The notes under the pieces were generated by a model. That model did not search any database. It saw nothing but the letters and a program-made list of their open reading frames with translations, and was not told the DNA's origin. The position numbers and the translations under genes were made by a program. Below, in pieces: positions 36,443-62,429 of a DNA stretch of 64,000 nucleotides. Positions within the stretch are counted from its first letter, which is position 1, and the number at the start of each line of letters is the position of its first letter. Origin of the DNA: Dehalococcoidia bacterium (GTDB taxonomy: Bacteria > Chloroflexota > Dehalococcoidia > Lucifugimonadales > QGNO01); assembly GCA_965197965.1 (NCBI GenBank), contig OZ240235.1:549820-613819 (forward strand), given 5' to 3'.

Positions 36443-36536
36443 AGCTCGGCCTTTGCGTCGGGAACAGGTCCTCCGGTAGAACTACGCTTACCTTGAGTGC
36501 CAGCCTTAAGCTCCGCCTGTCATCTGATCGGTATTG

Positions 36537-36660
36537 CCCATATAAACACTAGAGCCCCTTCATCGTTTTGGTAAGTGCTTAATCACACTCTTAGGACGGC
36601 AAAAGTGTTAGCTCTGAGAGAGAGTGTTTCTGCAACTTTTCGCTCTTGCTGACATAGACG
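36537..36660. repeat. Conserved intergenic cassette, copy A (short form)
   Basis: CCCATATAAACACTAGAGCCCCTTCATCG(T/A)TTTGGTAAGTGCTTAATCACACT...GTTAGCT...AGAGAGTGT(G)TTTCTGCAACTTTT(T/C)GCTCTTGCTGACATAGACG is shared with copies at 46304, 51098 and 62260. It lies ~95 nt upstream of the 34475..36442 start. The minus-strand promoter candidate is TTACCA (36574-36569), 17 nt, then TAGTGT (36551-36546). Confidence 0.8.
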
Positions 36661-36790
36661 CGACCGGGAGATGCCGCTGCCCTCTCCCCCGGCCATCCGC
36701 ATACGCGGGCATTTCTTGTTGCCCGGAAAGACAAGCGCTATGCACCGCCCGATCTATCTTTTAGGCCCGGAACCCTCTATAGCGACGGGA

Positions 36791-39700
36791 CTACTGCCCC
36801 GGCCCGGAAACAGTGAACACCAGACTATTGGACAGCTTTCTGCCGTCCTCCGTGCAGACGGCTCCCTGAGCCTCGCAGTCCGTCGTGACGGGCAGAACGA
36901 TGGTCACATCCTCGCTGGAGTCTGGCCTCACCATTATTCGCCACTTGATGTTGCTTGGCTTGTCCATGCGTTGAGCCTTTAGAATGGACCCACCGGTCAC
37001 AGTAAAGGCATGGAACTTTAGGGTCTTGTAGCTGAGCGGAATTTCCTCGCTGAACCGGATGTCGAATGTGAAGACATTCGAGGCGCCGTGGTGGCCGGCC
37101 ACGGGGAACACCAGGCGGACGGTCAGCGGCGTGGGCTTCGCCGCCACCGCCGCCGTCGCATCGCTGGTCAGCGTCTCATCGTTGTCGGCATCGTCGCGGA
37201 AGGAGACCCGCACTTGGATTGTCTGCCCTTTCTGCATGTCCTTGAGGGTGTAGCTGGAGCCGGTGGCCCCCGAGATGTCCGACCCTCCGGCGGTCCACTG
37301 GTAGCTGTACGAGACGTTGGTCAGCCCGTCCTGGTCGGCGATGTTAGACGTGTCAGCGGTCAGCGTCTGGTCCACCTGGGGCGTCCCGCCGATGGTGGGC
37401 AGTCCGGTGGCCGGAGAGTTGGGCTTGGCCGCAACCACCCCTGTCGCCGCGCTGGTCAGCGATTCGATGTTGTCCCGGTCGTCGGCGAATCTCACCCTTA
37501 CCGTGACGGTCTTGCCCTGCTCGTTGGCGGTGAGGGTGTAGGTCGAGCGGGTGGCCCCGATGGTCAGGCCCCCGGCCCTCCACTGGTAGAAGAAGGTGGC
37601 GTTCGTTATCCCGTCGAGGTCGGAGATGTTCGAGGTGTCCGCCGTCAGCGTCTGGCCCACGCGGGCCGTACCGTCGATGGTGGGCTTGCCGGTGGCCTGA
37701 CGGTTGGGTGCCGCAACCACCGCGCCCGTCGCATCGCTGGTCCGGGCCTCTGCGTTGTTCCGGTCGTCGATGAAGAACACCCTGACCTGGATGGTCTGCC
37801 CCTGCTCGCTGGAGGTGAGCAGGTAGCTGGGTCCGGTGGCTCCGTCGATGTCCGTACCGCCGGAAATCCACTGGTAGCCGTAGGACACGTTGGTCAGCCC
37901 GTCCTGGTCGTCTATGGGCGAGGTGTCCGCAGTCAACGTCTGGTCCACCTGGGGGGTCCCGCCGATGGTGGGCTTGCCCGTGGCCGGGGTGTTCTCGGCT
38001 GGCTCAATCACTCTGACGGCAACCTCATCCCCCTCGGACAAGTCCAGTCCCGGGTCGTTCCACTGGAACTGGATGATGGAGATGGAGTCCCTCTCCAGGG
38101 TCGATGCGTCGGTAGAGGCGAATTCGTCCGTCCCAACCACTAGGACAAAGTCGGCAGCCAATTTTGGCATCACTGAGAGAATCAGCTTGCCGTTCAGAAC
38201 CCCCAAGGCCCTGACGGTGTAGCTGGCATCGTCCAACGTGATGGTGTCGGACGAGAGAGCACCCAGGGTGTTGGTTTCCGGCAAAGACAGGAATGTCGTA
38301 TAGCCGGCAAAATTCTCTCCGCCCCCTACCGTCAAGGTCGCGGACCATATCGGTTCTTCCTGTGGTGTTCCAGAGGCTTCGGCCGACGTGGGAACGCCAA
38401 ACACCCAGGGGCGGGCCTGTTTGATGGACAGAACATCGTCGCTGGTGATCTTGAACTCGATTTCCATTGCGAAGGGTTCGTCGGGTCCGGGGTTGTACAG
38501 ACCCTCGAAATGGTCATGGATATCCTGGAGATGCCGGCGCAACTGGTCAATTTGAGCATCGCTCATGAGGAGTTGTCCTCGCGGCACCTGGTTGGAGGTT
38601 ACCAGGGTGGTGTATGAACCGGACAGGTCCAACAGGATTTCCTCGGGCACCGAGTGTGCGTCGGGATTGGTGACCAGGTCCTCACCCAGTTGCGTGTTGA
38701 CGTAGTAGCTCCCGTCCGTTTCGTAGATAGGGTCGAAGCTGACGGCCACGCCGTTGGCCAGCTCGTCCGAGTAGTTGGGATGGACCAGCACCCCCATCGC
38801 CGTCGCCAGGTGGTCGATGCGGTGGAACTCGCGTTCAGTGAATGCCCGGAAGTTCCACAGGCTGGCCCACACCCCTTTGATGGACTTGTCGATGCCGTCC
38901 TCCTCCGTCTCCTCCGGGTCCTGGGTCTTGGAGTCGTACAGCCCGGCGCCGCTGAAGCCCGGCAGGTCTTCGTTGTTGGTGCTGGACCGGTATCGCAGCG
39001 ATTGCCCTTCAGGGTAGGTGGCGTGCATCTCCTCCAGCGCGTCGATGATCCAGTCGGGCGTCTCCCCCTTCTTTATCTTCTTGCGGAGTTTCTTGAGTTC
39101 TTTCTCTTGAGTGTCATAGTCCGACTGGAAGTCCGGGTCTTCCAGCATCTCTTCGATATCGTCATAGAACCCGTTGTGCTTCATGAACTCGTCGTAGAAG
39201 TAGAAGGGCACCACGAACCCGTCGGGGACGGTTCCGTCGGGAAAACCCAGCGTCCGCAGCACGGCCACGTTGGCCGCCTTGACTCCAAACGCATTCCAGT
39301 CGTCGAAGCCAATGTCGTCCAGGTCGGTGATCTGGGTGACTGTGAGGTCCCGTTCCGGCGTCTGGGTTCCGGGAGGGCGCGAAGCGGCGAAGTAGGCCTC
39401 GACTTCGGCGGGAGTGGCGGCGCGGATGGAGTAGCCGTCCGCCGTGACGCTGTAGTGGACGTATCTGCCGATGAGATCATCGATGTCGCCGTCGTCTAGG
39501 GCGTCGCGAATGAAGGCGTTGGGGACACCGTCCTGGACGGCCCGCAGGTTGACGTGGGAAAGCGGTGTCTGGGGTACGGTGGTGATGAGGCCGGCGACCC
39601 GGGAAAGCTCGTTGGGGATAGTCTCGTAGATCACCACGTCGCGCGGGTCGGGGCGTTCCTCCAGCGACATGAGCCTGAGGAAACCGTACCCTTCCCCAAC

Positions 39701-42700
39701 GTTGAGGGGGAGGAATGGAACATCTGGCAGGATGTCCTCTCTCAACACCACATTGATCCGGGAATCATCGTAGAGGGCCCGTTCTCTGTGATAGAGCGGC
39801 AGGGCTCTCCTCGGCATGGGGTAATAGGCAAGGTTGTCATCAAGCAGCGCCATACTGGCCGCCAAAACCTCATACGAACGGGCCACATGGCCGAAGGGGT
39901 ATGCATCCATAGGCTGGAACTGGTAAAGGTAGACGCCCAGGGAACCATCAGGAGCAACCACATTGGGGTGGTATATGATCTCGCCGCCCATGTACCCCTG
40001 TCCCCAGAGTGGGTCGTCCCAGAGACCGATTGCATCCCCGAAATCGGGATGTATTCGGTGGGTCTCGGTGTTCATGAAATAGATGCCCATGTTGCCGGTA
40101 GACACGCCGATAATGTAGAACTTGACAAACTCCAGGTCCTGGAGATGGCGGTGATAGGGAACGTCTCTGCCCTTGTAGGAAAGCGCCTCAAATGTCTCAC
40201 GGTCTGGAATGGCAACAGCGCCATCAGGAAAAGGGACCGCCCTAGCGGGGTTCAGCGGGTTCATCGTCACCGGGTCCCCCAATTCGGTGATGTCGTCGAT
40301 GCAGTCGTTGTCGATGTCGGCCGGGTCGGCAATGAGGAACTTTTCCACCCGGTAATGTTCCTTGGGGAGCGGGGACAACTGCTCAGTCAGCGTTGTTGTG
40401 CCGTCTTCGCCCAGGGTCACCGAGACCGGGAACTCTCGTTCGGAGTCCAGGGCGGGCCGCACGTAGAGCACAAAGTATTCCTCGGTGGTGGACTCGACGA
40501 TAGCGGGAACGGCTTGAACCTCTACCGCCGTTGCCGCCGTGGCATGCTCGCCGACCGTGCACGCCACGACTGATACCTTGACCGTCCTATCACTGGTCAG
40601 CGCCTCCAGGCTGCCTGCGTCGTCATAGAACGACACCCGCACGCTAATGGTCTTGCCAAGGTCAGCCATAACCAGGGTGTAGGTCGAAGCCGTCGCTCCT
40701 TCGATGTCGGAGGAATTGCTCCCGAAGGGGCTGCGGACCCACTGGAAACTGAACGCGTCATCGTCGAGCCCGTCGGGGTCGGCGACCCCTGACACGTCCG
40801 CCGTCAGCGATTCGCCGACTTGGACGGCGCCGCTAATGACGGGCGCTCCCGTCGCGGCACGGTTGGCGGCCACCCTGAGAATCCTGTCGACGCCGGGTCT
40901 GTTGGAGGTGGCGATGTACAGAGCCCCGTCGGGGCCGAGCACCGGGGTCCGCAGTCGGCCGTGGCTGCCGTCGAGCTCCGGAACGACGATCTGACCCGCG
41001 AAATCGCCCTGTTCGGTGAACTCGAAGACCCGCAGCGACTTCGTCTTGAGCGTGGCCACCGCGAGTCGCCCTTCCCACTCCCCCCATTGGGGGCCCTGCA
41101 GGAAGACGGCCCCGCTGGTCGCCAGGGTGGGGAATCCCGAGGACCATCTGGCCTGGCGGGCAGATGGGAACTTCGCCAGGTCAGTCATGGGGACGCCGGC
41201 CTCGTCGGAATAGTCGTAGAAGACCAACGTGCCGTCGTCCGGGATCGGGTCCCAGCCGTAGTTGCCCCCTGGTGCGAGCAGATTGATCTCGTCGTCGTGT
41301 TTCGGGCCGTGCTCCACCAGCCACATCTGATCCGTGCCCGGGCGCAGAGCCAGGCCCTGGGGGTTGCGGAATCCGTAGGCGTACACCGGCGAGGAGGCGT
41401 CGAATGGATTGCCGGGCGCCCCGGCGCCCGTCCGTGGGTCTACGCGGAGGACCTTGCCGCCCAAGGACGTCAGGTCCTGCGCGCCCGTTACCACCCGCCC
41501 GTCGCCGGTCGCGATCCATAGATATCCCTCCGGACCGAAAAGCAGCCGGCCTCCCGAGTGCCAGGGGCCCGGACCGATCGGCATGCCCTTTACCAGGGGA
41601 TCGACGACGCGTGTGGCTTCGTCGTAGTCCGCGTCGATCGTCCAGGCGATCACCTGCATCTCGCGTCCGGCGTGCCCCTGGAGCGTGTAGAACCGCCGGT
41701 TGGTCGTAAAGTCCGGGTCCACGGCCAGCGCCTGCAGACCGGCGAACCCGTCGACCAACAGATCTCCGAGATCCGCGGCGACCCGCTTGACGGTGCCGTC
41801 GGTCAGCCTCGCGTTCAGCACGCCGGCGCGCTGGGTGAACAGCATCGTCCCGTCTGGGGTGAAATCAATGCCCCAGGGGTAGGACAGGCCCGTGACTATT
41901 TCCGTCACCGTCAGTTCCGGACCCGGCTCGCGGGCGCCCACGACGGCGGGCGAAACAGCTTCCGCGGACTTGCCGGGGCCCTGCCCGTCGGTGTACGACG
42001 CCTCGGCCTTGAGCAGCATCCCTTCGTCTTCTTCAGTTGGAACGTAGCTGTCTCCGTCGTCGTAGGCCTCGACGCCGGTCCAGGCGGTTCCGTCGGAGGA
42101 CCTGGCCCAGCTCCAAGAAACCGCGCCCGAAGACGCCGCAGGGCCCGAGCCGCCGCCCTCGAGGCCGTCGGGATCGCTCAGCGCGGCGCTGACCACCGTC
42201 CCGACCCTCGGCCTCGCCGGAAAGAGCGAAACGGTTCCGGGCCAATCCGCCGCCTTGATAGCCTCGGTGGCCTCGCTGGTCAGCGTTTCATAATTGCCAC
42301 GGTCGTCGACGAACGCCACCCGCACTTTGATCCGCTTGCCCATATCCTCGGCGACGAGCGTGTAGGTGGGCGAGCCGGTCCCGATGTTCGTCTCGGTCGC
42401 GCCGTCGACCCGCATCCACTGGTACGAGTAGGCCGCCCGGGTCAGCCCGTCGTCGTCCGACACGTCGGAGACCGCCGAGGCGAGCGTCCCCTTCACCTGC
42501 GGCGTGCCCGTGACCGTCGCCTCGCCGGCAGCCGGGTTGTTGATGAAGGAGCCTCTCGCCTCGATCTTGTAGGAAAACGCGTCGGAGGCCCATCCCTGAG
42601 CAGCGGCCTGAGGAGAATATGTCGCGCTTCCGTCCGCGATGGACCACCCCTCCGCGGCTCCCGTGTCTTCGGAGCCTCTCGCCGTTCCACTGATGGCGAT

Positions 42701-45700
42701 GGCGCCGGAACCGGTGACGCGGACCCTTTCGACGACCACGAAGTAGGTCCTCTCTTTCACGAGAGCCGGGCAGGTCGTCCCAGAGGCCGGAGCGGCGAAG
42801 GTGTTCACGCTCCGCTCGGACAGGCTCGCCAGGGCGATCAGCGTGCAGAGAGCGTCGCCCGGGACGCCGCCGCCGTCCGCGTTGAGCGTCACCTCGAGGT
42901 CGGACGACGTGTCCGAAACTTCGCCGAACTCGATCCCTACGGACGCCAGCGCGTACCCGGCTTTGCTGGTCCCGGTGGTGAACGCCTGGGCCCTCTTCGC
43001 GCCGGCCGAGCCCAGGTCATGGCCGACATCGCCGGACTGCCCCGTGTTGCCGACCAGCGCGGCGGCGGTCTCCGCGTCTTCGACGAACGGCCGAACGACA
43101 CCGCCGACGCCATGATAGGTGTAGATCATGGCATCGTCGGCGTCGACGACGTAGAAGGTCTCCCCGTCCGACCAGATGCCGGAGGCGTGGTCGTTGTCCT
43201 CGTGGAGCGGAAAGTCGTACCCCGCCTCGGTTCCGTCGGACAGTTTCACGCTCCGCACCGAGGCGTCGTTCGAGGCGAACCTGACGCCCCACATCGTCCG
43301 TCCGTCGGTGAAGAGGCCCCTCAGCTGGCCCCTGCCGGGGATCGTCAGCTTCCGGGACGTGTCCAGCCTCCCGTATTCGTCATCCCGCGTCTCGGGGTCG
43401 TCGAACAGACGGAAGGCGTGCGCGTGCGACGTGGTGTTGGTGATCCACAGGTGACGGCCGTCCGTCGCCATGCCGCGCACTATGAACACTCCCCCCGCGA
43501 CGTTCAAGCCCCCGTAGACGAAGTCCCGATCTTCCGCGCGCGTGAAACTCGTCAGGTCGTAGCCGAAGACGTCCCGGCTGGCGCCGTCAAGGGACTCTTC
43601 GGCCACGTACAGGCGGGGGCCGTGACCGGTGACGTAATGGTCCTCCTGGCCGAGGCTCGGAACGTCCCAGCCGGGGTCCCGGGTCCCGTACTCGCTGACC
43701 GCTGTGCCGGGGTTGTCCCACAGCTTGTAGGCGAAGACCTGCCGGGCGCTGCTGTCGCCGACCCACAGCGTTTCGCCGTCCGACCAGATGCTCTTCGGGC
43801 TCGCGTTCTCCGGATGCAGAGCAAAATCTTCGTCCTGGATCCATTCCCTTTGAACCAATGGTCTGCCGATCCACAAATGCATGTCACTGCCGCGGTCGGT
43901 GCGGATCCCCGACGTGGAACCTCCTGCAGGCAACAGAAAAGCAGCGGAGTCGATCTCTATCGTGACGGGATGGTGCCCGTGCGCACGAACATCGACAACG
44001 TCCGAATTTGAACTGCCCGAGGCGATGGTGACGGTCTCGGCGGACAGCTCTCCGTTACGGGCCGACAGTTCGACCTTCAGGTCGAGCGGCGTCGCGCCTT
44101 CGGCCAATCGGACCACGACCGTATCGTCTCCCCGCCGCTCCAGCTCCGCGGTGAACGTGAAAGGTGCGCCAGGATTGTCGCCCGCGTCGAGATCCGTCAG
44201 CCCCGAAAGACCTTCGAAGAGGCCGGTCGGCAGATCCTTGAGCTCGTTTCCCGAAAGGTCCAGCTCAGCGAGACTTCCGGTCTCGGCGAACACGTCCTCC
44301 GGCAAGCTCTTCAGGTCGTTCCCCGCGAGCGACAGTCTCTGCAGGTTGCCGAGACCGCCAAACACCCCGGCCGGCAGCTCGTCTATCGAGTTGGCGGACA
44401 GGTCCAGCTCCTCGATTTCGACCAGGTCGTCGAAAAGGCCGGCCGGTAGGTCCGAGAGCCCGTTGCCCGTGAGCGACAGCGAGACGAGTGCGTCCAAGTT
44501 TCCTAGCACGCCGTCCGGCAGCCACTCCAGGCGGTTCGCCGACAGGTCCAGAACGTTCAGATTCGCGGTTTGGCCGGCGAACGTCCCGTCAGGCAGTTCG
44601 TTCAGAAGGTTTCCCGACAGATAGATCTCCTCCACCGTCCGAAGGTCTTCGAAGAGGCCCTCCGAAACCGTCTCGAGGAAGTTTCTGTTCAGGTCCAGGG
44701 CGCGCAGCGCGTGCAGGTCCTGGAAATCCCCGGCCTGCAGGGCCGACAGTCCTCTCCCCTGAAGGTACAGCCCGGGCGTGACGTCGGGGCCGAAGTGCTG
44801 GGAGCCGGTCCAAGTCCTGAGCCTCGTCTCGGAAACCTCCGAGCAGTCGCCGACGCCGGGCATCCCGGCGACGATGGCCGCCATCACCGCAGGCGTCCGG
44901 TCGCAGATGCCGGGGGCGCCGACCCGGCCCGTCGGCTCGCTGGTAAGCGACTCTTCGTTGCCGGCGCCGTCGGTGAAGGACACCCTGACCTTGACGGCCC
45001 TGTCCCGGTCGCCGGGGACGATGGTGTAGGTTGAATCGGTCGCGCCCGCGATGTCCGTCTCGGCGTTCCCGTCGTTCGAAACCCATTGATATTCGAAGAT
45101 GGCGGCGTCCAGCCCGTCCGCGTCGGCGATGGAGCGGGTGCCCGCCGCCAGCGTCTCGTCCACTCGGACCGCGCCGGTTATCGTCGGCGCGCCCGCGGCA
45201 GGATTGTTCCAGTCGTATGCGTAGAGCTTAGCGTCATCGCGGGACGCCACCCACATCGTGGACCCGGCCGACCAGATGCCCTCGTAAGATTCATCGTCGG
45301 CGTCCAGCGCGAAGTCCTTGCTGCCGTCCCAGCTCCGGTCCGACATCCGGTAGGCGTACAGCTTGGAGTCCCGCCAGTCCGAAACCCACATCGTGGATCC
45401 GTTCGACCAGATGCCCATCGGAGAGTCGTGGCCGGGGCCCAGCGTGATGTCCTTCTCGAAGTCCCAGGCCCTGGTCGACAGGTCGTAGGCGAAGACCGTG
45501 TCGTTGCCGGTGTCCGCCACCCACATGGTGGTCCCGTCCGACCAGATGCCCTCGGGAAATCTGTTGCCGGCGGCGAACAACGTGTTGAAGTCCTTGCCCG
45601 AGTCCCGGCTCCGGTCCGACATCCGGTAGGCGTACAGCTTGGCGTCGGTGAAGTCCGACGCCCACATGGTGATCCCGTCCGACCAGATGCCCACCGGAGA

Positions 45701-45976
45701 GCCGTTGGCGGCGTCCAGGGTGAAATCCTTGCCCGAGTCCCGGCTCCGGTCCGACATCCGGTAGGCGTACAGCTTGTGATCCTCGAAGTCCGCGACCCAC
45801 ATGGTGGTCCCGTCCGACCAGACTCCGGTCGGATAGCCGTTGGCGGCGGCCAGAGTGAAATCGCTGCCGGAGTCCCGGCTCTGGGCGTGGGCATCAGGAG
45901 TGAGAAGCAGGGCGGCGATGACCGTCAGTCCGATGAGCAGCAGTGGGAGTGGAGCAAGACGCCGGGAGGCGGTCAT
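36791..45976 (-). CDS. Giant secreted mosaic protein (3061 aa): propeller repeats, YQW modules, LRR, PQQ-type sugar dehydrogenase propeller, PEP-utilising/PPDK_N-like domains
   Basis: The signal peptide is MTASRRLAPLPLLLIGLTVIAALLLTPDAHAQ.
- Five ~46-aa repeats (GIWSDG.TMWV.D....KLYAY) at ~45210-45890.
- LRR block at ~44000-44915.
- GSDH-like propeller at ~40870-41910 (GLSYPWGIDFTPDG...HSGGRLLFGPEGYLW...GFRNPQGLA...GGNYGWD).
- PEP-utilising His-domain-like plus PPDK_N-like region at ~38600-39700.
- Three tandem YQW modules at ~37130-38000.
- A unique C-terminal domain. Confidence 0.85.
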   Translation of the reverse strand: MTASRRLAPLPLLLIGLTVIAALLLTPDAHAQSRDSGSDFTLAAANGYPTGVWSDGTTMWVADFEDHKLYAYRMSDRSRDSGKDFTLDAANGSPVGIWSDGITMWASDFTDAKLYAYRMSDRSRDSGKDFNTLFAAGNRFPEGIWSDGTTMWVADTGNDTVFAYDLSTRAWDFEKDITLGPGHDSPMGIWSNGSTMWVSDWRDSKLYAYRMSDRSWDGSKDFALDADDESYEGIWSAGSTMWVASRDDAKLYAYDWNNPAAGAPTITGAVRVDETLAAGTRSIADADGLDAAIFEYQWVSNDGNAETDIAGATDSTYTIVPGDRDRAVKVRVSFTDGAGNEESLTSEPTGRVGAPGICDRTPAVMAAIVAGMPGVGDCSEVSETRLRTWTGSQHFGPDVTPGLYLQGRGLSALQAGDFQDLHALRALDLNRNFLETVSEGLFEDLRTVEEIYLSGNLLNELPDGTFAGQTANLNVLDLSANRLEWLPDGVLGNLDALVSLSLTGNGLSDLPAGLFDDLVEIEELDLSANSIDELPAGVFGGLGNLQRLSLAGNDLKSLPEDVFAETGSLAELDLSGNELKDLPTGLFEGLSGLTDLDAGDNPGAPFTFTAELERRGDDTVVVRLAEGATPLDLKVELSARNGELSAETVTIASGSSNSDVVDVRAHGHHPVTIEIDSAAFLLPAGGSTSGIRTDRGSDMHLWIGRPLVQREWIQDEDFALHPENASPKSIWSDGETLWVGDSSARQVFAYKLWDNPGTAVSEYGTRDPGWDVPSLGQEDHYVTGHGPRLYVAEESLDGASRDVFGYDLTSFTRAEDRDFVYGGLNVAGGVFIVRGMATDGRHLWITNTTSHAHAFRLFDDPETRDDEYGRLDTSRKLTIPGRGQLRGLFTDGRTMWGVRFASNDASVRSVKLSDGTEAGYDFPLHEDNDHASGIWSDGETFYVVDADDAMIYTYHGVGGVVRPFVEDAETAAALVGNTGQSGDVGHDLGSAGAKRAQAFTTGTSKAGYALASVGIEFGEVSDTSSDLEVTLNADGGGVPGDALCTLIALASLSERSVNTFAAPASGTTCPALVKERTYFVVVERVRVTGSGAIAISGTARGSEDTGAAEGWSIADGSATYSPQAAAQGWASDAFSYKIEARGSFINNPAAGEATVTGTPQVKGTLASAVSDVSDDDGLTRAAYSYQWMRVDGATETNIGTGSPTYTLVAEDMGKRIKVRVAFVDDRGNYETLTSEATEAIKAADWPGTVSLFPARPRVGTVVSAALSDPDGLEGGGSGPAASSGAVSWSWARSSDGTAWTGVEAYDDGDSYVPTEEDEGMLLKAEASYTDGQGPGKSAEAVSPAVVGAREPGPELTVTEIVTGLSYPWGIDFTPDGTMLFTQRAGVLNARLTDGTVKRVAADLGDLLVDGFAGLQALAVDPDFTTNRRFYTLQGHAGREMQVIAWTIDADYDEATRVVDPLVKGMPIGPGPWHSGGRLLFGPEGYLWIATGDGRVVTGAQDLTSLGGKVLRVDPRTGAGAPGNPFDASSPVYAYGFRNPQGLALRPGTDQMWLVEHGPKHDDEINLLAPGGNYGWDPIPDDGTLVFYDYSDEAGVPMTDLAKFPSARQARWSSGFPTLATSGAVFLQGPQWGEWEGRLAVATLKTKSLRVFEFTEQGDFAGQIVVPELDGSHGRLRTPVLGPDGALYIATSNRPGVDRILRVAANRAATGAPVISGAVQVGESLTADVSGVADPDGLDDDAFSFQWVRSPFGSNSSDIEGATASTYTLVMADLGKTISVRVSFYDDAGSLEALTSDRTVKVSVVACTVGEHATAATAVEVQAVPAIVESTTEEYFVLYVRPALDSEREFPVSVTLGEDGTTTLTEQLSPLPKEHYRVEKFLIADPADIDNDCIDDITELGDPVTMNPLNPARAVPFPDGAVAIPDRETFEALSYKGRDVPYHRHLQDLEFVKFYIIGVSTGNMGIYFMNTETHRIHPDFGDAIGLWDDPLWGQGYMGGEIIYHPNVVAPDGSLGVYLYQFQPMDAYPFGHVARSYEVLAASMALLDDNLAYYPMPRRALPLYHRERALYDDSRINVVLREDILPDVPFLPLNVGEGYGFLRLMSLEERPDPRDVVIYETIPNELSRVAGLITTVPQTPLSHVNLRAVQDGVPNAFIRDALDDGDIDDLIGRYVHYSVTADGYSIRAATPAEVEAYFAASRPPGTQTPERDLTVTQITDLDDIGFDDWNAFGVKAANVAVLRTLGFPDGTVPDGFVVPFYFYDEFMKHNGFYDDIEEMLEDPDFQSDYDTQEKELKKLRKKIKKGETPDWIIDALEEMHATYPEGQSLRYRSSTNNEDLPGFSGAGLYDSKTQDPEETEEDGIDKSIKGVWASLWNFRAFTEREFHRIDHLATAMGVLVHPNYSDELANGVAVSFDPIYETDGSYYVNTQLGEDLVTNPDAHSVPEEILLDLSGSYTTLVTSNQVPRGQLLMSDAQIDQLRRHLQDIHDHFEGLYNPGPDEPFAMEIEFKITSDDVLSIKQARPWVFGVPTSAEASGTPQEEPIWSATLTVGGGENFAGYTTFLSLPETNTLGALSSDTITLDDASYTVRALGVLNGKLILSVMPKLAADFVLVVGTDEFASTDASTLERDSISIIQFQWNDPGLDLSEGDEVAVRVIEPAENTPATGKPTIGGTPQVDQTLTADTSPIDDQDGLTNVSYGYQWISGGTDIDGATGPSYLLTSSEQGQTIQVRVFFIDDRNNAEARTSDATGAVVAAPNRQATGKPTIDGTARVGQTLTADTSNISDLDGITNATFFYQWRAGGLTIGATRSTYTLTANEQGKTVTVRVRFADDRDNIESLTSAATGVVAAKPNSPATGLPTIGGTPQVDQTLTADTSNIADQDGLTNVSYSYQWTAGGSDISGATGSSYTLKDMQKGQTIQVRVSFRDDADNDETLTSDATAAVAAKPTPLTVRLVFPVAGHHGASNVFTFDIRFSEEIPLSYKTLKFHAFTVTGGSILKAQRMDKPSNIKWRIMVRPDSSEDVTIVLPVTTDCEAQGAVCTEDGRKLSNSLVFTVSGPGQ

Positions 45977-45991
45977 GAATCACCCCTAACC

Positions 45992-46253
45992 GGCCCGGAA
46001 ACAGTGAACACCAGACTATTGGACAGCTTTCTGCCGTCTCCGGTGCAGACGGCCCCGTCAGCGTCGCAGTCCGTCGTGGCGGGCAGAACGATGGTCACAT
46101 CCTCGTTGGAGTCTGGCCTCACCATTATTCGCCACTTGATGTTGCTTGGCTTGTCCATGCGTTGAGCCTTTAGTATGGATCCACCGGTCACAGTAAAGGC
46201 GTGGAACTTTAGCGTCTTGTAGCTGAGGGGAATATCCTCGCTGAACCGGATGT
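45992..46253 (-). pseudogene. Remnant copy of the 3' end of the giant gene (C-terminal domain only)
   Basis: About 260 bp is nearly identical by eye to 36801-37062. Track ORF 45973..46191 reads (M)TGGSILKAQRMDKPSNIKWRIMVRPDSNEDVTIVLPATTDCDADGAVCTGDGRKLSNSLVFTVSGP, against the genuine C-terminus ...VTGGSILKAQRMDKPSNIKWRIMVRPDSSEDVTIVLPVTTDCEAQGAVCTEDGRKLSNSLVFTVSGPGQ. Its TGA overlaps the ATG of the 3061-aa gene (ATGA). Confidence 0.75.
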
Positions 46254-46303
46254 GGAACTTACGACCTCCTCCGCTGTCCCCACGTAGAGCGGCGGCCTGT
46301 GAT

Positions 46304-46957
46304 TCCGCTTATCGTATGGTTCTTCTTACGCATCTACCCATAAGAACACTAGAGCCCCTTCATCGATTTGGTAAGTGCCTAATCACACTGTCGCGGCAGC
46401 AATTTTGTTAGCTTTTAGAGAGTGTGTTTCTGCAACTTTTTGCTCTTGCTAACATAGACGGAAGTGGCTAGATTGGTAGTCATCTACAGACCGCCGTGAC
46501 CGCCAAACACTCCATGGTCTCACGCGCATACCGGAGAGCAGATGTCTCAGCCCGCCTGCGTCTGGCGGAACTGGCGCACCGGCCTTCGGGTTGCCCGGAG
46601 CGATATGTCGTGTATGCGCCGCTATTCCTGCCGCAAAGGCCGGGGGCAGGCCGGCGCGAGGTCGCTGCGCCAGTTCCGCCGGCGGTCCAGTGTCATCTGA
46701 CCGGGCTCCGGCGTCGCTTCGCACCAGGGTTGGGTTGGATATTGGAATAGGGGCCTGACTTGATGAAGGCAGCGTTCGGCGCAATACAGACGCGGGTTCT
46801 TCAGATGCTCTGGCTCGACCCGGGCGAGGCATCGTACGCCGCCAAGGTCACGGTGTGGCTACGCTGGCTATTCTGGGTCGGCGCCGTGATCGAACTCGCC
46901 TATCGCCCGACGTTCACGCAAGCGAAGTACATTCCGTTCATGCTCATGCATGTGCCG
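46304..46957. repeat. Conserved intergenic cassette, copy B (long form, includes duplicated kinase 5' end)
   Basis: It is collinear with 62260-62876, with high identity in the core and in the kinase N-terminal coding part, and a patchy middle. The rightward promoter candidate is TTGCTA (46446-46451), 17 nt, then TAGATT (46469-46474). The leftward candidate is TTACCA (46374-46369), 17 nt, then TAGTGT (46351-46346). Confidence 0.8.
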
Positions 46958-47056
46958 GTGGGCGGACGAGAGACCACGACTCAGGGTCACCAGTCCGGGA
47001 CCGAACCCCTGCTGGACGGGCTAGATGCGGTTCAAGTTATTCAATCACCACTGTAG
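46760..47056 (+). pseudogene. Truncated duplicate of the sensor-kinase N-terminus
   Basis: MKAAFGAIQTRVLQMLWLDPGEASYAAKVTVWLRWLFWVGAVIELAYRPTFTQAKYIPFMLMHVP matches the first ~65 aa of the 62681..63892 kinase. It then diverges and stops. No HisKA or ATPase part is present. Confidence 0.75.
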
Positions 47057-47130
47057 GGACAAGTAGTACCGGGGAGAGACGGGAGGCAGGCATCGCAATC
47101 AGGGAGTTCATACGTGGCCCAGGCCTGACC

Positions 47131-48267
47131 ATGAAGGCGGCCAGGTTGTCGTTGTCGTTGTTGGCAGTAGTCGGAGTACTTCTAACGCTGCTCATCCTTC
47201 TTACTCCACAGGGACGGACCGCGTTCCATACCGCGTTGTTCGTCATGCAGGTGTTGGAGATGCCGGTGCAGGCCCAGTCCTGGTTTACGGACGAACCGTT
47301 GCGGCATAGAGTGCACTTCCCCACCTCCAGCGGCGCGTCTGAGGCTGAAGTGTACCGTCTGCCCGACGGGAATCTCCAGCCTGCGGTGGTGCTCTCTCTA
47401 GGAGTTGCCAATGAAGGGTTTAGCGATCCCCGCGTGGTCAACCTTGGCAACGCACTTTCGCGGGCTGGCGTAGTCGTGATGATCTACTGGTCACCGGAGA
47501 TGGCCCTGCGCCATCAACTCGACCCCGACGAACCTGATAAACTGGTGTCGGCATACCTCTATCTGGCGGAGCAGGACTACGTGGACCCGGAATGGGTCGG
47601 CATAGGTGGGTTCTCCGCCGGGGCAGCCTTCGCCTTGATGGCTGCTGCCGACCGCCGAATCAGAGACCAGATTTACCTGGTCAATGTCTTTGGCCCCTAC
47701 TTCGATGCGGAGACACTGCTACTCCAGGCGACTTCCCGGTCCGTAGTCTACGAAGGAGAGCAGCGTCCGTGGGAGCCTGACTGGCTCGTCATGCAGGTTC
47801 TTGCCACCGAGCTGATTGAGGTCCTGAATAATCCCGAAGAAGCGGCCCTGCTGACTCGCCGCTACGTGGACGGCTATACTATCTCATCCGAAAAGTTGGG
47901 CGGGCTGTCTTCTCAGGGCAAAGTGATAGTCCGCCTACTGGACGGCGTATCTCTTGAGGAGGCGAAGACCCTTTATGGACTGCTGCCATCCAGCAAGCGA
48001 CGGGAACTGGCACAAATCTCCCCGGCCACCTATATCAGTGATGTTCGCGCCAGAGTGCTGGTGCTTCATGACTACAACGACAATATGGTGCCGTCCTCCG
48101 AATCCAGGCGCTTGATGGAGGCGTTAAAGAGCCGGGGGAATATTCGCTACACCGAGGTTCGATCCTTCGACCACGCCACCGTGGGTCGCAGCAACGTGCT
48201 GGCTTATCTTGGGGATGCGGCCCGTCTTTACTGGCACATGTACGAGATATTGCGAGTCGCTTCCTGA
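47131..48267 (+). CDS. Alpha/beta hydrolase (membrane-anchored; S9/dienelactone-hydrolase-like)
   Basis: The track ORF is open from 46855, but MKAARLSLSLLAVVGVLLTLLILL (ATG 47131) is a plausible signal anchor. The nucleophile elbow is GIGGFSAGAA (GxSxG). Late D and H candidates are VLHDYNDNMV and FDHAT. Confidence 0.7.
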   Translation: MKAARLSLSLLAVVGVLLTLLILLTPQGRTAFHTALFVMQVLEMPVQAQSWFTDEPLRHRVHFPTSSGASEAEVYRLPDGNLQPAVVLSLGVANEGFSDPRVVNLGNALSRAGVVVMIYWSPEMALRHQLDPDEPDKLVSAYLYLAEQDYVDPEWVGIGGFSAGAAFALMAAADRRIRDQIYLVNVFGPYFDAETLLLQATSRSVVYEGEQRPWEPDWLVMQVLATELIEVLNNPEEAALLTRRYVDGYTISSEKLGGLSSQGKVIVRLLDGVSLEEAKTLYGLLPSSKRRELAQISPATYISDVRARVLVLHDYNDNMVPSSESRRLMEALKSRGNIRYTEVRSFDHATVGRSNVLAYLGDAARLYWHMYEILRVAS

Positions 48268-48422
48268 CCGTCTCGGATTGACCGATGGCCCCTGCAGGAA
48301 CGACGAGCCGCCAAGCCAACCCTGACGTGACAGAAACCTTGTCCTGTGAGTGAGTGTATCTCGACCTACGGACTAGACCGGCATTGGAGAGTCAGACCTG
48401 AAGTGAAGTCAACCGTACAGCT

Positions 48423-51041
48423 ATGAAAGATGCAGCTTCGCAGAGATTCAGTACCTTTCTGGAGAGGCGCTCCGGCTGGATAGTATTCGGGGTTCTCGTA
48501 GTAACCCTGCTGCTTGTCATACCTCTCATAGCCCTCGCGCCGGACGAGCAGGCTTCAACAGAGCCCGGCGGGCCCGTTTTCGACCTGCGCGATCAGGTAG
48601 ACGAGCGCTTTCCCCCTGCACTCTACGTCCCGACCTACATGCTGGAATCTCTCGACGGTCCGGATGGCGACGTCTTGATCCAAGCTGCCCTGTGGGAGCT
48701 GTACCAGAATGAGAATACCCTCCGCCGGGCCGACGAACGCGGGGAGCTGCGCCCCCCCAAGCTGGAGGCCCAGCCTCATTTGTACCGGGGCAACAACCCC
48801 AGCACCCAGCACCCCATGCACGGAATCTTCACCGTCGCCGACGCGGTTCAGGCCGTCCTCGCCGAAATGGGCACTGACCTTGAACGCGCCAGCGACGATG
48901 AAGTCAAGCTCGCCCTCCACTACGTGCTTCTCGAGGACTCGCCCACATCTAGTCTGCTGAGGTCCTTATCGGAGATGGCCTCGTTCACTCTGGAGGAATC
49001 GGAGGACATCGGGCAGTACAGGCGCTGGCGCTCTCCAGCCATCATTATCTTTGTAATGGCCGAAAACAGCCGGCTGGGCGGGGGACCGCTGACCATAAAC
49101 ATCGGAGGGGACGACACCGCCATACAGAAGGAGCACTTTGGCCGAAATGTACAGAGAATCCTAAGAGGCGAAGAGCGGAACTATCGACTTTGGGGCGTCG
49201 CCATAGACCCAAACCTGGAATCTCAGGATCAGGGACGAATTGCCATCCCCTTCATCTTCGCAACCGTGGTGGCCGTTCTGGTGGTAATCGGGATAAGCCT
49301 GCGCTCCTGGCGGGTGGTGCTCCTTACAGCCGTCGGCCTGACAATGCTCATCCTGTGGCTCAAGGGAATATCGAACCTCCTTGGCCTCAAGGGCGGCTTA
49401 GTCGTGGAACTGATCGTGCCCATCGCCATGATCTCCCTGGGAGTCGACTTCGCCATTCACGCCCTGCACCGCTATCGAGAGGAGAGGAGCAGAGGACTTG
49501 GACCGCGCATGGCATTGAGAGCGGGATTCGCAGGCGTAATGGGTGCGCTGGTGCTTGCTATGCTCACAGACGGAATGGCCTTCTTCTCCAACACTGTTTC
49601 AGGCATAGAATCAATAGTTGGGTTTGGAATCGCCGCTGGTATAGCCGTAATGTCCTCCTTCATTATCATGGGTATATTCGTGCCCCTGGTGTTCATGCGG
49701 ATGGACGCGCGAAGTGAAACCGGGCAGGCCAACTCTGAGCCGGTATCCGATCCAGGTCCTTCTGCGAATAGCAGCCAATCCAGCAGGGCTCTGAGCGCCG
49801 AGTGGGTTGTGGCGAGACTAGCTCGGAGTTGCTTCATTGTGCTCCCTGTGGTGGCGGTATTGACCGGGGTAGCCCTGCTTTTCGCCAGCAGGCTAGAGGC
49901 GCAGCTGGACGTCAAGGACTTCTTCGATAGCGACTCGGACTTCGTGGTTGGACTGGACAAGCTTGACCAGCACGCTGGGGCCACCCAAGGCGAGCCGGGG
50001 ATCATCTACATAGAGGGCGACCTGTCGGCCAGCGAGTCTCTTGAGGCACTCAGAGAGCTTCAATCAAAGTTGAAGGCCAACCCCTACGTGGCCAAGGGCG
50101 TCGATGGAGAGCCCACTCTATACAGCACGACGGTCTTTGAGTTGATGGAGCGTCTCATCGGCAGCGAGTACGCCCTTTACCAGGTGGAGCTTGTAACGGA
50201 GCAGGCCATCACGGACACGGACGGCGACAAAATGCCGGACACCCAGGCCCAGATCAGGGCTGCCTTCGACTACATTGTAGACCGAGGCGTTCCACTGGAC
50301 GAGTCGACTTTGGCTTTCACGCCGTCCCAGGTTCAGGGGAGCCTATTCCACGATCCCTCCGGACATGACCCCGATGCTCTCCAAATTCGCGTTGGCCTGC
50401 CCGGCACCAGGGAGCAATCTTTGGTATCCGGGGCGCGGCAGGCCGTCGAGGCTAACCTGGAGTTTCTTGAGGACGTGCCCTCTATCTCCGCGGCTGGTCT
50501 CACCGGCTCAGCCTTAACCAGGGCTGCCTCCCTGGATGCGGCTGTGCGCTCCCTGCTCATCTCGCTGCCCATTGCCGTGGCGTCCTGCTTCCTGGTGGTG
50601 GCGGTGTTCATGCGCTCAGTGCGTTATGCCATCGTGACCATCATCCCCATAGGCCTGGTGGTGACCTGGCTGTACGCCATGATGCACCTGATGGGATTTC
50701 ACCTCAACTTCGTGACGGCCACCATCGGGGCGGTCTCCATCGGAGTCGGCGTGGACTTCTCCATCCACATGACCCAGCGGTTCCGGGAAGAGATGGGAAG
50801 GGTCGGCGATGGAATGCGCGCGATGGAGCGGACCGCGAGAGGCACGGGGACAGCCCTCATGGCGTCGGCAGGGTCAAGCATCTGCGGATTCGCGATCATG
50901 GCCCTTGCTCCCATGCCCATGTTCTCCGCCTACGGCATTCTCACCGCCGTCATGGTCTTCATGGCGGCCGCAGCAGCCCTGCTGGTCCTGCCGTCCCTGC
51001 TGTTGCTGGTGACCCCCGAACCCCGACAGGTGGATGGTTAA
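48423..51041 (+). CDS. MMPL/RND-superfamily transporter
   Basis: 872 aa. It has two 6-TM bundles, each preceded by a large soluble domain. GVDFAIHALHRYREE and GVDFSIHMTQRFREE are the duplicated MMPL-type motifs. Confidence 0.85.
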   Translation: MKDAASQRFSTFLERRSGWIVFGVLVVTLLLVIPLIALAPDEQASTEPGGPVFDLRDQVDERFPPALYVPTYMLESLDGPDGDVLIQAALWELYQNENTLRRADERGELRPPKLEAQPHLYRGNNPSTQHPMHGIFTVADAVQAVLAEMGTDLERASDDEVKLALHYVLLEDSPTSSLLRSLSEMASFTLEESEDIGQYRRWRSPAIIIFVMAENSRLGGGPLTINIGGDDTAIQKEHFGRNVQRILRGEERNYRLWGVAIDPNLESQDQGRIAIPFIFATVVAVLVVIGISLRSWRVVLLTAVGLTMLILWLKGISNLLGLKGGLVVELIVPIAMISLGVDFAIHALHRYREERSRGLGPRMALRAGFAGVMGALVLAMLTDGMAFFSNTVSGIESIVGFGIAAGIAVMSSFIIMGIFVPLVFMRMDARSETGQANSEPVSDPGPSANSSQSSRALSAEWVVARLARSCFIVLPVVAVLTGVALLFASRLEAQLDVKDFFDSDSDFVVGLDKLDQHAGATQGEPGIIYIEGDLSASESLEALRELQSKLKANPYVAKGVDGEPTLYSTTVFELMERLIGSEYALYQVELVTEQAITDTDGDKMPDTQAQIRAAFDYIVDRGVPLDESTLAFTPSQVQGSLFHDPSGHDPDALQIRVGLPGTREQSLVSGARQAVEANLEFLEDVPSISAAGLTGSALTRAASLDAAVRSLLISLPIAVASCFLVVAVFMRSVRYAIVTIIPIGLVVTWLYAMMHLMGFHLNFVTATIGAVSIGVGVDFSIHMTQRFREEMGRVGDGMRAMERTARGTGTALMASAGSSICGFAIMALAPMPMFSAYGILTAVMVFMAAAAALLVLPSLLLLVTPEPRQVDG

Positions 51042-51097
51042 AGCAAGGCAGGACTGCCCCACGAGAAATAACCGCCGGACATCCCTGGCAGCAGCCT

Positions 51098-51191
51098 TAT
51101 CACACTGTCGCGGCAGCAATTTTGTTAGCTTTTAGAGAGTGTGTTTCTGCAACTTTTCGCTCTTGCTGACATAAACGGAAGTGGCTAGATT
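51098..51191. repeat. Conserved intergenic cassette, copy C (right half only)
   Basis: ATCACACTGTCGCGGCAGCAATTTTGTTAGCTTTTAGAGAGTGTGTTTCTGCAACTTTTCGCTCTTGCTGACATAAACGGAAGTGGCTAGATT is near-identical to copies B and D. It retains the rightward promoter candidate TTGCTG (51163-51168), 17 nt, then TAGATT (51186-51191). It lacks the leftward half. Confidence 0.8.
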
Positions 51192-51329
51192 ATCGTTCAG
51201 GCCCTGGCCGACGTCCCTCGCCCATGCTAAGACAGGCTCTGTTAGCCGCAGTTTCTCAGCTCCGCTCGCTGCCCAGGCACGGTAATCGTCAAGCTTTGCC
51301 CGGGGCGTTCTCAAGTCGCTCGGTGATGA

Positions 51330-51407
51330 ACTTGCGCTGAATACGTCGAAGGGCGATTCGGCCCCGGTTCGGGACAATGGTACGAAGCCCAACTCGTCTA
51401 TGATCAA
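51330..51407 (-). pseudogene. Short IS21-family IstB (helper ATPase) fragment
   Basis: The minus-strand sequence MIIDELGFVPLSRTGAESPFDVFS resembles the Walker-B region of IstB (..IIDE(L/W)GY.P......LF.(V/L)...). The remainder of track ORF 51132..51407 does not look like IstB. Confidence 0.35.
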
Positions 51408-51491
51408 CAGCTTGAGCCGGGACAGTTGTCTTTGCAGAACTGGCGTCTCCGCATTGCTATACCTGATTGTTCCCCTACCGCGGACTGCGGT

Positions 51492-52322
51492 CTACCGCCG
51501 CCGTCTACGGACATACGCCACGACGACGCCTACCACGAGGACTATCCCGGCAACCACCAGGACGATCAACCATGCCGGCGCGCCGCCGCTCGACTCCTGT
51601 GCTGGAGGGGTCGGGGGAGCGGCCGTCGCCGGGGCGGCCGTCGGTTCGGGCTCAGGCGTGACCGTCGGTTCGGGTTCGGGCGTGGCCGTCGGTTCGGGCT
51701 CAGGAGTGGCCGTAGGCTCAGGCTCAGGCGTGACCGTTGGTTCGGGCTCAGGAGTGGCCGTTGGTTCGGGCTCAGGAGTGGCCGTAGGCTCAGGCTCAGG
51801 AGTGGCCGTAGGCTCAGGCTCGGGCGTGGCCGTCGGTTCGGGCTCGGGCGTGGCCGTCGGCTCGGGCTCAGGCGGTGGCGGTGGCGGCGGTGGTGGCCCC
51901 ACCCGCAGCATCGTGTCGCCCGAAATAGTCCGCTCCTCGCGGTCTTCATTCTTGACGACGCCCGAGAAGGTGTACTCCCCTTCGGCGCTTGGGACGGTTA
52001 GGACATAGGTGAAGGCTGGGTTGCCAAGCAGGTTGAACGAAACAGTCTGCCCGTTGACCTCAACTTGGAAGTCGTCAAGGCTCGTGCGGACGTAGGTGAA
52101 TCCCGCCGGCAGTTCTTCGACCACCTGGCCGATGGGACCGTAGTTGCTGGCGGTGATTGTGACCCGGAATTCGCTGCCGGGCGCCGCCCAGTCCTGCTGA
52201 AAGGTCCTGGTGGCGTTGTGGGATTGCGCCTCCACGCCGTCGGGCTGCGCCAACAGCACGACGGCGCCCACCATGGCGGCGATTGCCAGGGCCGCAATTG
52301 CTCCAATGGGAGTTCGGATCAA
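51492..52322 (-). CDS. Membrane-anchored surface protein: beta-sandwich domain + Pro9 + (PEPEPTAT)x~10 linker + C-terminal TM/Arg5 anchor
   Basis: 276 aa. It has a signal peptide, a ~110-aa domain (EFRVTITASNYGPIGQVVEELPAGFTYV...YTFSGVV), PPPPPPPPP, then PEPEPT(A/V)T repeats. It ends SSGGAPAWLIVLVVAGIVLVVGVVVAYVRRRRR. It lies 39 nt downstream of the 3236-aa gene on the same strand. Confidence 0.7.
   Translation of the reverse strand: MIRTPIGAIAALAIAAMVGAVVLLAQPDGVEAQSHNATRTFQQDWAAPGSEFRVTITASNYGPIGQVVEELPAGFTYVRTSLDDFQVEVNGQTVSFNLLGNPAFTYVLTVPSAEGEYTFSGVVKNEDREERTISGDTMLRVGPPPPPPPPPEPEPTATPEPEPTATPEPEPTATPEPEPTATPEPEPTATPEPEPTVTPEPEPTATPEPEPTATPEPEPTVTPEPEPTAAPATAAPPTPPAQESSGGAPAWLIVLVVAGIVLVVGVVVAYVRRRRR
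51636..51872. repeat. 24-bp tandem repeat array (~10 units) encoding PEPEPTAT
   Basis: The units are GGTTCGGGCTCAGG(C/A)GTG(A/G)CCGT(C/T/A), imperfect and contiguous without spacers. The array lies inside CDS 51492..52322. Confidence 0.9.
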
Positions 52323-62072: not shown

Positions 62073-62300
62073 GACCTACCCCCGGCTAGCCGAGTCCAAA
62101 AATCGGGGGCTGACAGGGGTATTGCCGTCACCGTTAAAGCGTCTCTTACGTTTCCGTTCGGCATCTTTACGTCGTCAGGTGAAACCTTGGGCTAACCACT
62201 CGCCAGCTTGAGACCCCCGTATGCAATCACTGTCCTATCGCAGAGTGGCAGCCTGAGGGTCCGCTTATCGTATGGTCTTCTTACGCATCCACCCATATAA

Positions 62301-62329
62301 ACAGTAGAGCCCCTTCATCGATTTGGTAA
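62301..62329 (-). promoter_or_regulatory. Candidate leftward promoter for the 3236-aa gene
   Basis: On the minus strand: TTACCA (62329-62324), a 17-nt spacer, then TACTGT (62306-62301). The same geometry is conserved in copies A and B (-10 TAGTGT). It would give a ~230-nt 5' UTR. Confidence 0.3.
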
Positions 62330-62400
62330 GTGCTTAATCACACTGTCGCGGCAGCAATTTTGTTAGCTTTTAGAGAGTGTGTTTCTGCAACTTTTTGCTC

Positions 62401-62429
62401 TTGTGGACACAAACAAAAGTGGCTAGATT
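62401..62429 (+). promoter_or_regulatory. Candidate rightward promoter for the kinase/regulator operon
   Basis: TTGTGG (62401-62406), a 17-nt spacer, then TAGATT (62424-62429). The -10 and spacing are conserved in copies B and C (-35 TTGCTA / TTGCTG). About 250 nt of leader precede ATG 62681. Confidence 0.35.

Follow-up and report, generated by a model that had tools for sequence, protein, structure and literature searches.

Families of surface-protein genes show concerted evolution and recombination among their repeated 5' regions. In Pseudomonas fluorescens, deletion-mediated promoter capture raised transcription 23- to 219-fold (PMC4395868). We analysed a stretch of 64,000 nt from a Dehalococcoidia bacterium (assembly GCA_965197965.1, contig OZ240235.1, positions 549,820-613,819 of the forward strand), referred to below as the window. 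Four copies (A, B, C and D) of a conserved intergenic region, here called the cassette, were counted in it. Copy B is followed by a leader and the 5' end of a sensor kinase gene (the stub), and then by the genes of a membrane-anchored alpha/beta hydrolase and an MMPL transporter (Table 1). The reading we favour, with moderate confidence, is that copy B is the stump of an adhesin-gene/cassette/kinase locus that was joined through a microhomology in front of the hydrolase-MMPL pair, and that the cassette promoter reads through into the pair.

Repeat finding and pairwise alignment gave ∼90% identity between copy B (46274-46964) and copy D (62230-62882) in the cassette, in the 5' part of the leader, and from the ribosome-binding region to kinase codon 65. 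The first aligned block pairs 46274-46553 with 62230-62507, and its sub-blocks range from 80 to 92% (46274-46319 vs. 62230-62275, 80%; 46321-46479 vs. 62276-62434, 92%; 46481-46568 vs. 62435-62522, 84%). The second block (46724-46964 vs. 62641-62882, 88-90%) comprises the ribosome-binding region and the first 65-67 kinase codons. The middle of the leader could not be aligned between the two copies (46554-46723, 170 nt, vs. 62508-62640, 133 nt). An earlier reading made from the letters of the window (the sequence-only reading) had judged by eye that B reproduces D at high identity from the cassette through the leader into ∼65 codons. The alignment bears out the identity, at 80-92% by block, and also the extent for the cassette, the leader ends and codons 65-67; the middle of the leader does not fit that description. 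The sharp end of the homology and the frame closing at 47056 were seen correctly: homology is abruptly over at ...CATGTGCCGGTGG / ...GTGCCGGTGG, position 46964, and the stop codon TAG lies at 47054-47056.

That reading took B for a segmental duplicate of D, which did not survive comparison with related genomes (numbered loci L001-L030, each 8-20 kb). The stub resembles the start of the L025 kinase gene, which stands beside an orthologue of the giant surface-protein gene next to B (giant-1), more than it resembles D (94 vs. 91%), and the fusion is common to L029 and L030. Identity of the stub to the first 65 codons of full kinase genes in L025, L015, L011, L017, and L018 is 88-94% at the nucleotide level, and the first 65 codons of D are nearest to L017 and L011 (95-96%). 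For the cassettes alone, B and D match each other better than either matches any other copy (89%). In L025 and L018 the giant-1 orthologue (90-92% identity over the N-terminal 333 aa queried) is followed by a cassette, a full 406-aa kinase and a regulator. Since stub B and kinase D are each closer to kinases of other species, B and D appear to be old paralogous loci, with B now lacking the kinase after about codon 67 and the response regulator. The stub has no Pfam family, both HisKA_3 and HATPase_c being missing, and its homology indicates a kinase gene fragment that covers the N-terminal membrane sensor region only.

The joint between the stub and the region upstream of the hydrolase lies at a 7-nt microhomology. 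On the left side of window position 46955, L001 and L002-5 have ∼26 bases in common that are absent from the window, and the window join at 46958-46964 is therefore derived. The comparison with relatives foreseen in the sequence-only reading found the stub-hydrolase join also in L029 (OZ244716.1, a chromosome of 2.15 Mb, circular and closed, with 34x coverage) and in L030 (an assembly from another sample), with an identical junction in both; L001 and L002-L007 carry the hydrolase-MMPL pair without the fusion, the apparent pre-fusion state. With the identical join in both, an assembly artefact is excluded, and the event is older than the split of these lineages. A search with the stub protein gave orthologous 97-aa stubs (P0078, 97%; P0079, 93%) and variants that also carry the join (P0080-83). 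The exact junction was absent from JGI metagenome contigs in two scans, the second with a degenerate junction codon, and support for it comes entirely from ENA/NCBI assemblies. A Chi-like octamer (GCTGGTGG) was considered as a feature of the breakpoints and rejected: it is absent at the window junction, and the window has 7 occurrences vs. 3.2±1.7 expected (4 of 100 shuffles gave at least 7).

A scan with a 24-base core pattern, using one genome per species, found the cassette at 21 loci in about 18 Dehalococcoidia species represented by metagenome-assembled genomes, with one or two loci per genome. In the usual layout the cassette has at least one giant surface-protein gene on its minus-strand side and genes for a HisKA_3 kinase and a response regulator on its plus-strand side. 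In the window, the giant genes next to the cassettes encode a leucine-rich repeat (LRR)/GSDH/PPDK_N protein and one rich in cadherin domains. An alignment of 24 distinct copies (about 18 species) has, on both strands, conserved pairs of hexamers 17 nt apart. In cassette B the plus-strand elements are TTGCTA (46446-46451) and TAGATT (46469-46474), and the minus-strand elements are TTACCA (46374-46369) and TAGTGT (46351-46346). Position and conservation make it plausible that the cassette is a two-part divergent promoter. The natural half-deletions agree with such a promoter: A and L013, which share the same right-hand break, retain the half toward the gene of a 655-aa LRR surface protein (34475-36442, minus strand, with cassette A upstream of it), and C and L008/L029 retain the half toward the kinase. 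At the L017 locus orthologous to cassette A the full kinase is still present. A miniature inverted-repeat transposable element or other mobile element was rejected as the nature of the cassette, given the lack of inverted repeats, one or two exact core matches per genome and the invariable adhesin/kinase context. Rfam matched two tRNAs alone over the whole window, and none of the cassettes or leaders.

Transcriptional capture of the hydrolase-MMPL pair by cassette B is plausible from the arrangement. All three fused genomes have intact promoter-like elements, an intact 5' leader and ribosome-binding region, and an unbroken stub open reading frame (ORF). The genes are whole and run in the same direction, and the plus-strand cassette elements have no intact gene before the hydrolase. 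The layout is thus that of a captured promoter, i.e., a foreign promoter-like region and a 5' gene fragment directly upstream of an intact co-oriented gene, with a derived join. Terminators were sought by consensus scan only, which found no plus-strand terminator-like site in 46475-47131; neither a promoter-like nor a terminator-like site was found by consensus scan in 46965-47130. From the read-through tail of the stub up to the hydrolase start (46958-47140), predicted folding is weaker than in shuffled sequence (z = +1.9).

These observations are consistent with the following course of events. The segment 46274-46964 would be the remainder of a paralogous adhesin-gene/cassette/sensor-kinase locus, whose giant-1 orthologue elsewhere is partnered by an intact kinase. 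A single illegitimate recombination at CCG(G/C)TGG would have joined the kinase gene at about codon 67 to a point 166 nt upstream of hydrolase-MMPL, by deletion or insertion, in an ancestor common to at least two other sequenced genomes, and the rest of the B kinase and its response regulator would have gone from this position. Later, homologous recombination or gene conversion would have replaced the sequence of the cassette and stub again and again, with paralogous cassette/kinase 5' ends as partners, and a second kinase/regulator pair, of the L-type, would have been lost in a rearrangement beside an IS21 remnant, leaving half-cassette C. Plus-strand transcripts from the cassette would run through the 97-codon stub and an unstructured 75-nt spacer into hydrolase-MMPL, adding kinase-type (probably autoregulated) control to the native promoter of the pair. 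Because the B kinase and regulator are gone, such control would have to be supplied in trans by paralogous regulators, for example the one that follows kinase D.

Table 1. Positions of the features discussed, in window coordinates
Feature	Position	Strand	Description
Cassette A	36521-36679		Right-truncated: left half and core kept, plus-strand -10 lost; 72% identical to B in register
Surface-protein remnant	45990-46257	-	94% copy of 36799-37066, the 3' end of giant gene 36791-45976
Cassette B	46274-46479		Conserved divergent intergenic, promoter-like region
Leader of B	46480-46762	+	5' 75 nt conserved, then decayed L-type kinase 5' remnant, then ribosome-binding region
Stub ORF	46763-47056	+	97 aa: first 65 kinase codons, 32 codons of read-through in the hydrolase upstream region, stop
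Junction	46958-46964		Microhomology CCG(G/C)TGG common to kinase codons 65-67 and the hydrolase upstream region
Native hydrolase 5' region	46965-47130	+	166 nt kept; 97-99% identical in L001, L029, L030
Alpha/beta hydrolase, membrane-anchored	47131-48267	+	378 aa; Pfam
MMPL/RND (HAE3-like) transporter	48423-51041	+	872 aa; PF03176
Half-cassette C	51097-51192		96 nt: core and plus-strand -35/-10 only; breaks after TAGATTA
IstB (IS21 helper)-like fragment	51336-51431	-	∼32 codons; PF01695 E = 5e-4, 20.1 bits vs. cut-off 24.1, profile positions 149-180 of 238
Cassette D and leader	62230-62680	+	Leader with a 62-aa upstream ORF, 62496-62684
Kinase D	62681-63892	+	Intact sensor kinase; HisKA_3 residues 202-261, HATPase_c residues 309-397 (Pfam)
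Response regulator start	63894-64000	+	MPTESRRIRVLLADDH...; runs off the window end

The membrane-anchored hydrolase and the MMPL/RND transporter on the same strand had been recognised in the sequence-only reading, and Pfam places both above cut-offs. The hydrolase matches PF00326 Peptidase_S9 (34.2 bits, cut-off 22.6) and PF20434 BD-FAE (34 bits, cut-off 26.8) and has a nucleophile elbow, GFSAG (GxSxG), at codons 160-164. The transporter matches PF03176 in two stretches at 106 bits (cut-off 20.5); the NCBIfam models for HAE3, MMPL and HpnN-like proteins all scored under their cut-offs, and no subfamily could be assigned. All hydrolase homologues at 85-97% identity have an MMPL neighbour, and those at 57-59% have none. 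The contexts of the pair vary: it lies in a housekeeping context with no cassette in L006/L007, and amid insertion sequence (IS) elements in L002-L005; in L001 the hydrolase stands behind a cassette and an entire L-type kinase gene. A longer match that includes the hydrolase 5' region (46955-48375) is ∼94% identical in L002/3. In L002-L005 (90% identical) the two genes are separated by one or two genes for IS110-family transposases, and the pair is not always one transcription unit.

Divergence is very unevenly distributed across the fusion. Between the window and L030, identity is 87% for the cassette and 5' leader and 98% from 46554 to the hydrolase start (p = 6e-10). Between the window and L029, synonymous divergence (dS) is 0.23 for the stub, 0.007 for the hydrolase and 0.053 for MMPL. 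Purifying selection was rejected as the cause of the low omega of the stub (0.18): with a stub dS ∼30 times that of the neighbouring hydrolase, the low value most likely reflects gene conversion from functional kinases. The cassette and stub thus keep recombining with paralogues, and the hydrolase-MMPL part has stayed nearly unchanged. Kinase D is also a mosaic. At informative sites up to 62882 it sides with L017 over L025 by 21:4, and beyond 62882 with L025 over L017 by 42:17 (Fisher p = 3.5e-6); the donor switch at 62875-62887 coincides with the end of the B/D homology. The mosaic may consist of conversion tracts bounded by the stub homology, or the B stub and the 3' part of D may be the halves of one split gene. 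Kinase D is followed by the start of a response regulator gene, as orthologous regulators of 204-217 aa follow the kinases in L018 and L025; no NCBIfam equivalog reached its cut-off.

Several points weigh against read-through from a captured promoter. Cassette B matches the sigma-70 consensus at 8/12 positions, under the scanner threshold of 9/12, and cassette C alone among the cassettes was flagged by the scanner. The pair is found without any cassette in L002-L007 and must therefore have a promoter of its own, possibly within the retained 166 nt, in which case read-through is unnecessary. The hydrolase start has no obvious ribosome-binding site. The switch in kinase D at the codon where the stub ends is not predicted by a simple deletion. 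Moreover, the count of cassettes covers the window alone.

The strongest competing explanation, which we regard as a real possibility though clearly less probable than capture, is that the stub is an inert scar: a decaying pseudogene fragment, with no effect of the cassette on hydrolase-MMPL, which would be transcribed only from a native promoter within the retained 166 nt or close by. The occurrence of the pair without a cassette in L002-L007 fits this, as do the frameshifts that vary the stub tails in P0081-83, the deletions by which an older L-type remnant in the leader is decaying, and the differences between the window and L030 stubs, of which none is synonymous and 3 are non-synonymous. 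On the other hand, no promoter-like site was detected in 46965-47130, and this stretch is unconserved in L006/7. The hydrolase upstream region could not be aligned with the L006 locus, which is 87% identical, and no conserved native promoter was identified in that comparison. The cassette elements and the stub ORF have been kept in three diverged genomes, and the consensus scan found no terminator-like site in between.

Half-cassette C, which begins 55 nt past the MMPL stop, bears on the history of the right-hand side. In L008/L029 the same MMPL gene is followed by the same 55-nt spacer and cassette edge, and then by genes for a complete L-type kinase of 419 aa and a response regulator of 207 aa (with Response_reg and GerE domains in L029). 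C is probably the relic promoter region of this L-type kinase/regulator pair, which would have been lost from the window at 51192. Because in L008/L029 C serves a full kinase/regulator pair downstream of MMPL, it is not a product of the stub-hydrolase event. The proposal that recombination placed hydrolase-MMPL between two cassette copies is supported. A half-cassette followed by a fragment of IS21 IstB had also been read from the letters; C does stand right after the transporter stop, and the IstB-like fragment is also there, tiny and scoring under the gathering score. BLASTP of this fragment against the IstB of L005 gave no match. A similar IstB-like fragment lies ∼3 kb downstream of MMPL in L002-4. 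At L030 14330-14336 homology to the window ends at most 3 nt from the left edge of cassette C (...GCAGCCTTA), with an fn3-like ORF next; this edge appears to be a breakpoint in two different rearrangements.

A doubtful alternative takes stub B and the 3' part of kinase D for the two pieces of one ancestral kinase gene, split at about codon 65 by the insertion of a 15.9-kb block. The block would reach from the hydrolase to a second giant gene (giant-2), cassette D and 65 codons, and would have entered with one end by homology and the other by microhomology (Campbell-like/homology-facilitated illegitimate recombination). This would account for the change of kinase D from L017-type to L025-type exactly at the end of the B/D homology (p as above); stub B is L025-type, and recombination of B with D would recreate an L025-like order of giant-1, cassette and full kinase. 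Against this, L029 shares the left junction and continues on the right with MMPL, cassette C, the L-type kinase, the regulator and HsdM, with no giant-2/D block within 6 kb. Cassette C of the window is a truncated derivative of the L029 state, and the 65-codon segments are a patchwork across species, which makes the 'type' labels soft. From loci of 8-20 kb the order of all rearrangements is not fully reconstructable.

The leader of B records a further truncated kinase. Its L-type remnant has an ATG at 46542, and 46562-46630 reads LAELAHRPSGCPERYVVYAPLFL; the leader is 74% identical to residues 55-77 of the L029 L-type kinase (tblastn) and 84% identical to L001 8579-8661 (blastn). An L-type remnant, of up to the first ∼77 codons, was found by tblastn in the leader of every locus checked that has a kinase of the D-type (window B and D; L011, L017, L023, L025, and L030). 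The remnants contain stops, frameshifts and varied deletions. In the leader of D the upstream ORF (MSQPHCLSRGLRPIRAAASVFGMSVEPLIRL...) overlaps the kinase D start codon in an ATGA, and over its first 31 codons it shares 74% identity with the N-terminal end of L-type kinases; this remnant might be translated and coupled to kinase D. The decaying remnants explain why the middle of the leader is unalignable, why D has a 62-aa ORF and why the leaders lack an RNA fold: predicted folds of the B and D leaders are no better than those of shuffled sequence (z = -0.9 and z = -0.05). A structured RNA or riboswitch, for which Rfam also gave no match, was rejected in favour of a decayed kinase 5' remnant. 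The remnant appears to record an earlier event of the same kind as the B fusion, with a breakpoint ∼4-5 homologous codons from that of B.

A more general idea, unlikely in our estimate, is that the cassette, leader and ∼65-77 kinase codons form a reusable docking module, in which recombination within the module or at its 3' edge repeatedly puts new genes under the promoter of the adhesin island. The nested stubs would fit, L-type before every D-type kinase and D-type before hydrolase-MMPL, with breakpoints ∼4-5 homologous codons apart; so would the donor switch of kinase D at the same codon and the truncated kinase N-termini before unrelated genes in L009 and L020. If true, this would amount to recurrent, perhaps selected regulatory rewiring in these (possibly sponge-associated) Dehalococcoidia, and no one-off accident. 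In cassette-oriented coordinates, L009 4233-4679 and L020 4850-5296 have a cassette and then a 148-aa ORF that is the N-terminal membrane part of an L-type kinase, followed by an unrelated 143-aa lipoprotein-like gene. They appear to be further truncated-kinase stubs before foreign genes.

It is improbable that the stub is a functional small membrane protein (one full transmembrane helix and part of a second) that, for example, modulates paralogous kinases. The 97-aa ORF is unbroken in three genomes, its omega between the window and L029 is low, and other short N-terminal kinase ORFs exist, such as those of 148 aa in L009 and L020. However, the low omega is attributable to gene conversion, the dS contrast with the adjacent hydrolase being the reason; the stub tails of P0081-83 contain frameshifts, the second helix is incomplete, and no family matches. 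Even less probable is a version of the sequence-only reading in which a recent segmental duplication put the promoter, leader and kinase 5' end of D before hydrolase-MMPL. The ∼90% identity over some 520 nt in two blocks and the mutual top match of the two cassettes favour it, but both 65-codon ends have nearer relatives in other species, intact orthologues of locus B exist in L025 and L018, L029 and L030 carry the same fusion, and the leader middles of B and D are different deletion derivatives. An assembly chimera at a repeat is scarcely credible: the region is repeat-rich and JGI metagenome contigs lack the junction, but three assemblies made independently from different samples, among them a closed chromosome at 34x, share the join, which lies at a 7-nt microhomology outside any long repeat.

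Other features of the window were noted. The product of the giant gene 36791-45976 (minus strand; 3061 aa) combines LRR repeats with glucose/sorbosone dehydrogenase (GSDH) and pyruvate phosphate dikinase nucleotide-binding (PPDK_N) domains, which is unusual for an adhesin-like protein. A copy of ∼270 nt from the end of this gene lies directly upstream of its own start codon, now in its 5' untranslated region. This surface-protein remnant, between the gene start (45976) and cassette B, still has a 72-aa ORF and is most likely the relic of a deleted tandem paralogue. Beyond the IstB-like fragment, 51492-52322 (minus strand) encodes a 276-aa secreted protein with a weak DUF11-like domain and, at the C-terminus, a transmembrane anchor whose last residues are RRRRR; within the gene, about fourteen tandem repeats of 24 nt (51583-51918) code for PEPEPTAT, and an orthologue in L026 is 52% identical over 117 aa. 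The housekeeping half of the window has a tRNA-Met gene (CAT, minus, 19769-19843) and a tRNA-Gly gene (TCC, plus, 24814-24888). The other half is a surface-protein island of higher G+C (0.62-0.68).

If read-through from cassette B does occur, an envelope hydrolase and a lipid-type exporter of an uncultured Dehalococcoidia lineage would have come under the same two-component-controlled family of promoters that fronts its giant adhesin-like genes (LRR and cadherin), and the locus would be a natural, inherited example of promoter capture. Apart from the fate of the pair, a conserved promoter region of ∼300 nt with a gene 5' end would serve as a recombination substrate that reshuffles the adhesin island. 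For annotation, the stubs and 'leaders' are to be treated as pseudogene remnants and not as small proteins or riboswitches.

The exporter pair resembles MmpL/HpnN-type RND lipid exporters associated with envelope hydrolases in that an MMPL transporter stands beside a membrane-anchored serine hydrolase. The matches of this transporter to HpnN, MmpL3, and BstA, however, are far under the equivalog cut-offs; the pairing of hydrolase and MMPL is also limited here to a clade of at least 85% identity, the 57-59% homologues being without it. Copy B can likewise be compared with NarL/LuxR-type autoregulating two-component loci (HisKA_3 kinase and GerE-type regulator). Kinase D precedes a regulator in the same manner, and the cassette is at the position of the autoregulated promoter, whereas copy B has neither catalytic domain nor regulator and the binding of a regulator to the cassette is putative. 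As in recombining surface-protein families, paralogous upstream modules seem to be homogenised and to act as crossover points, as suggested here by the lower identity of the cassette (87%) than of its flanks (98%), the mosaic kinase D and the nested stubs. No recombinase, invertible segment or silent-cassette archive was identified here, however, and the exchanges look sporadic and not programmed.

The closest likeness is to the wrinkly spreaders obtained by experimental evolution of P. fluorescens (PMC4395868, where E. coli Cit+ is cited), in which, as here, an upstream gene is truncated and its promoter and 5' end come to stand before an intact co-oriented gene. The present stub differs: it is not in the hydrolase reading frame, and a stop codon and 75 nt lie between the two, so that capture would be transcriptional only. 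The event here is also ancient and natural, with continuing gene conversion, and is known from its sequence alone. We concluded that the fusion is an ordinary, known kind of rearrangement in a recombination-prone adhesin/two-component island, and one that is natural and inherited.

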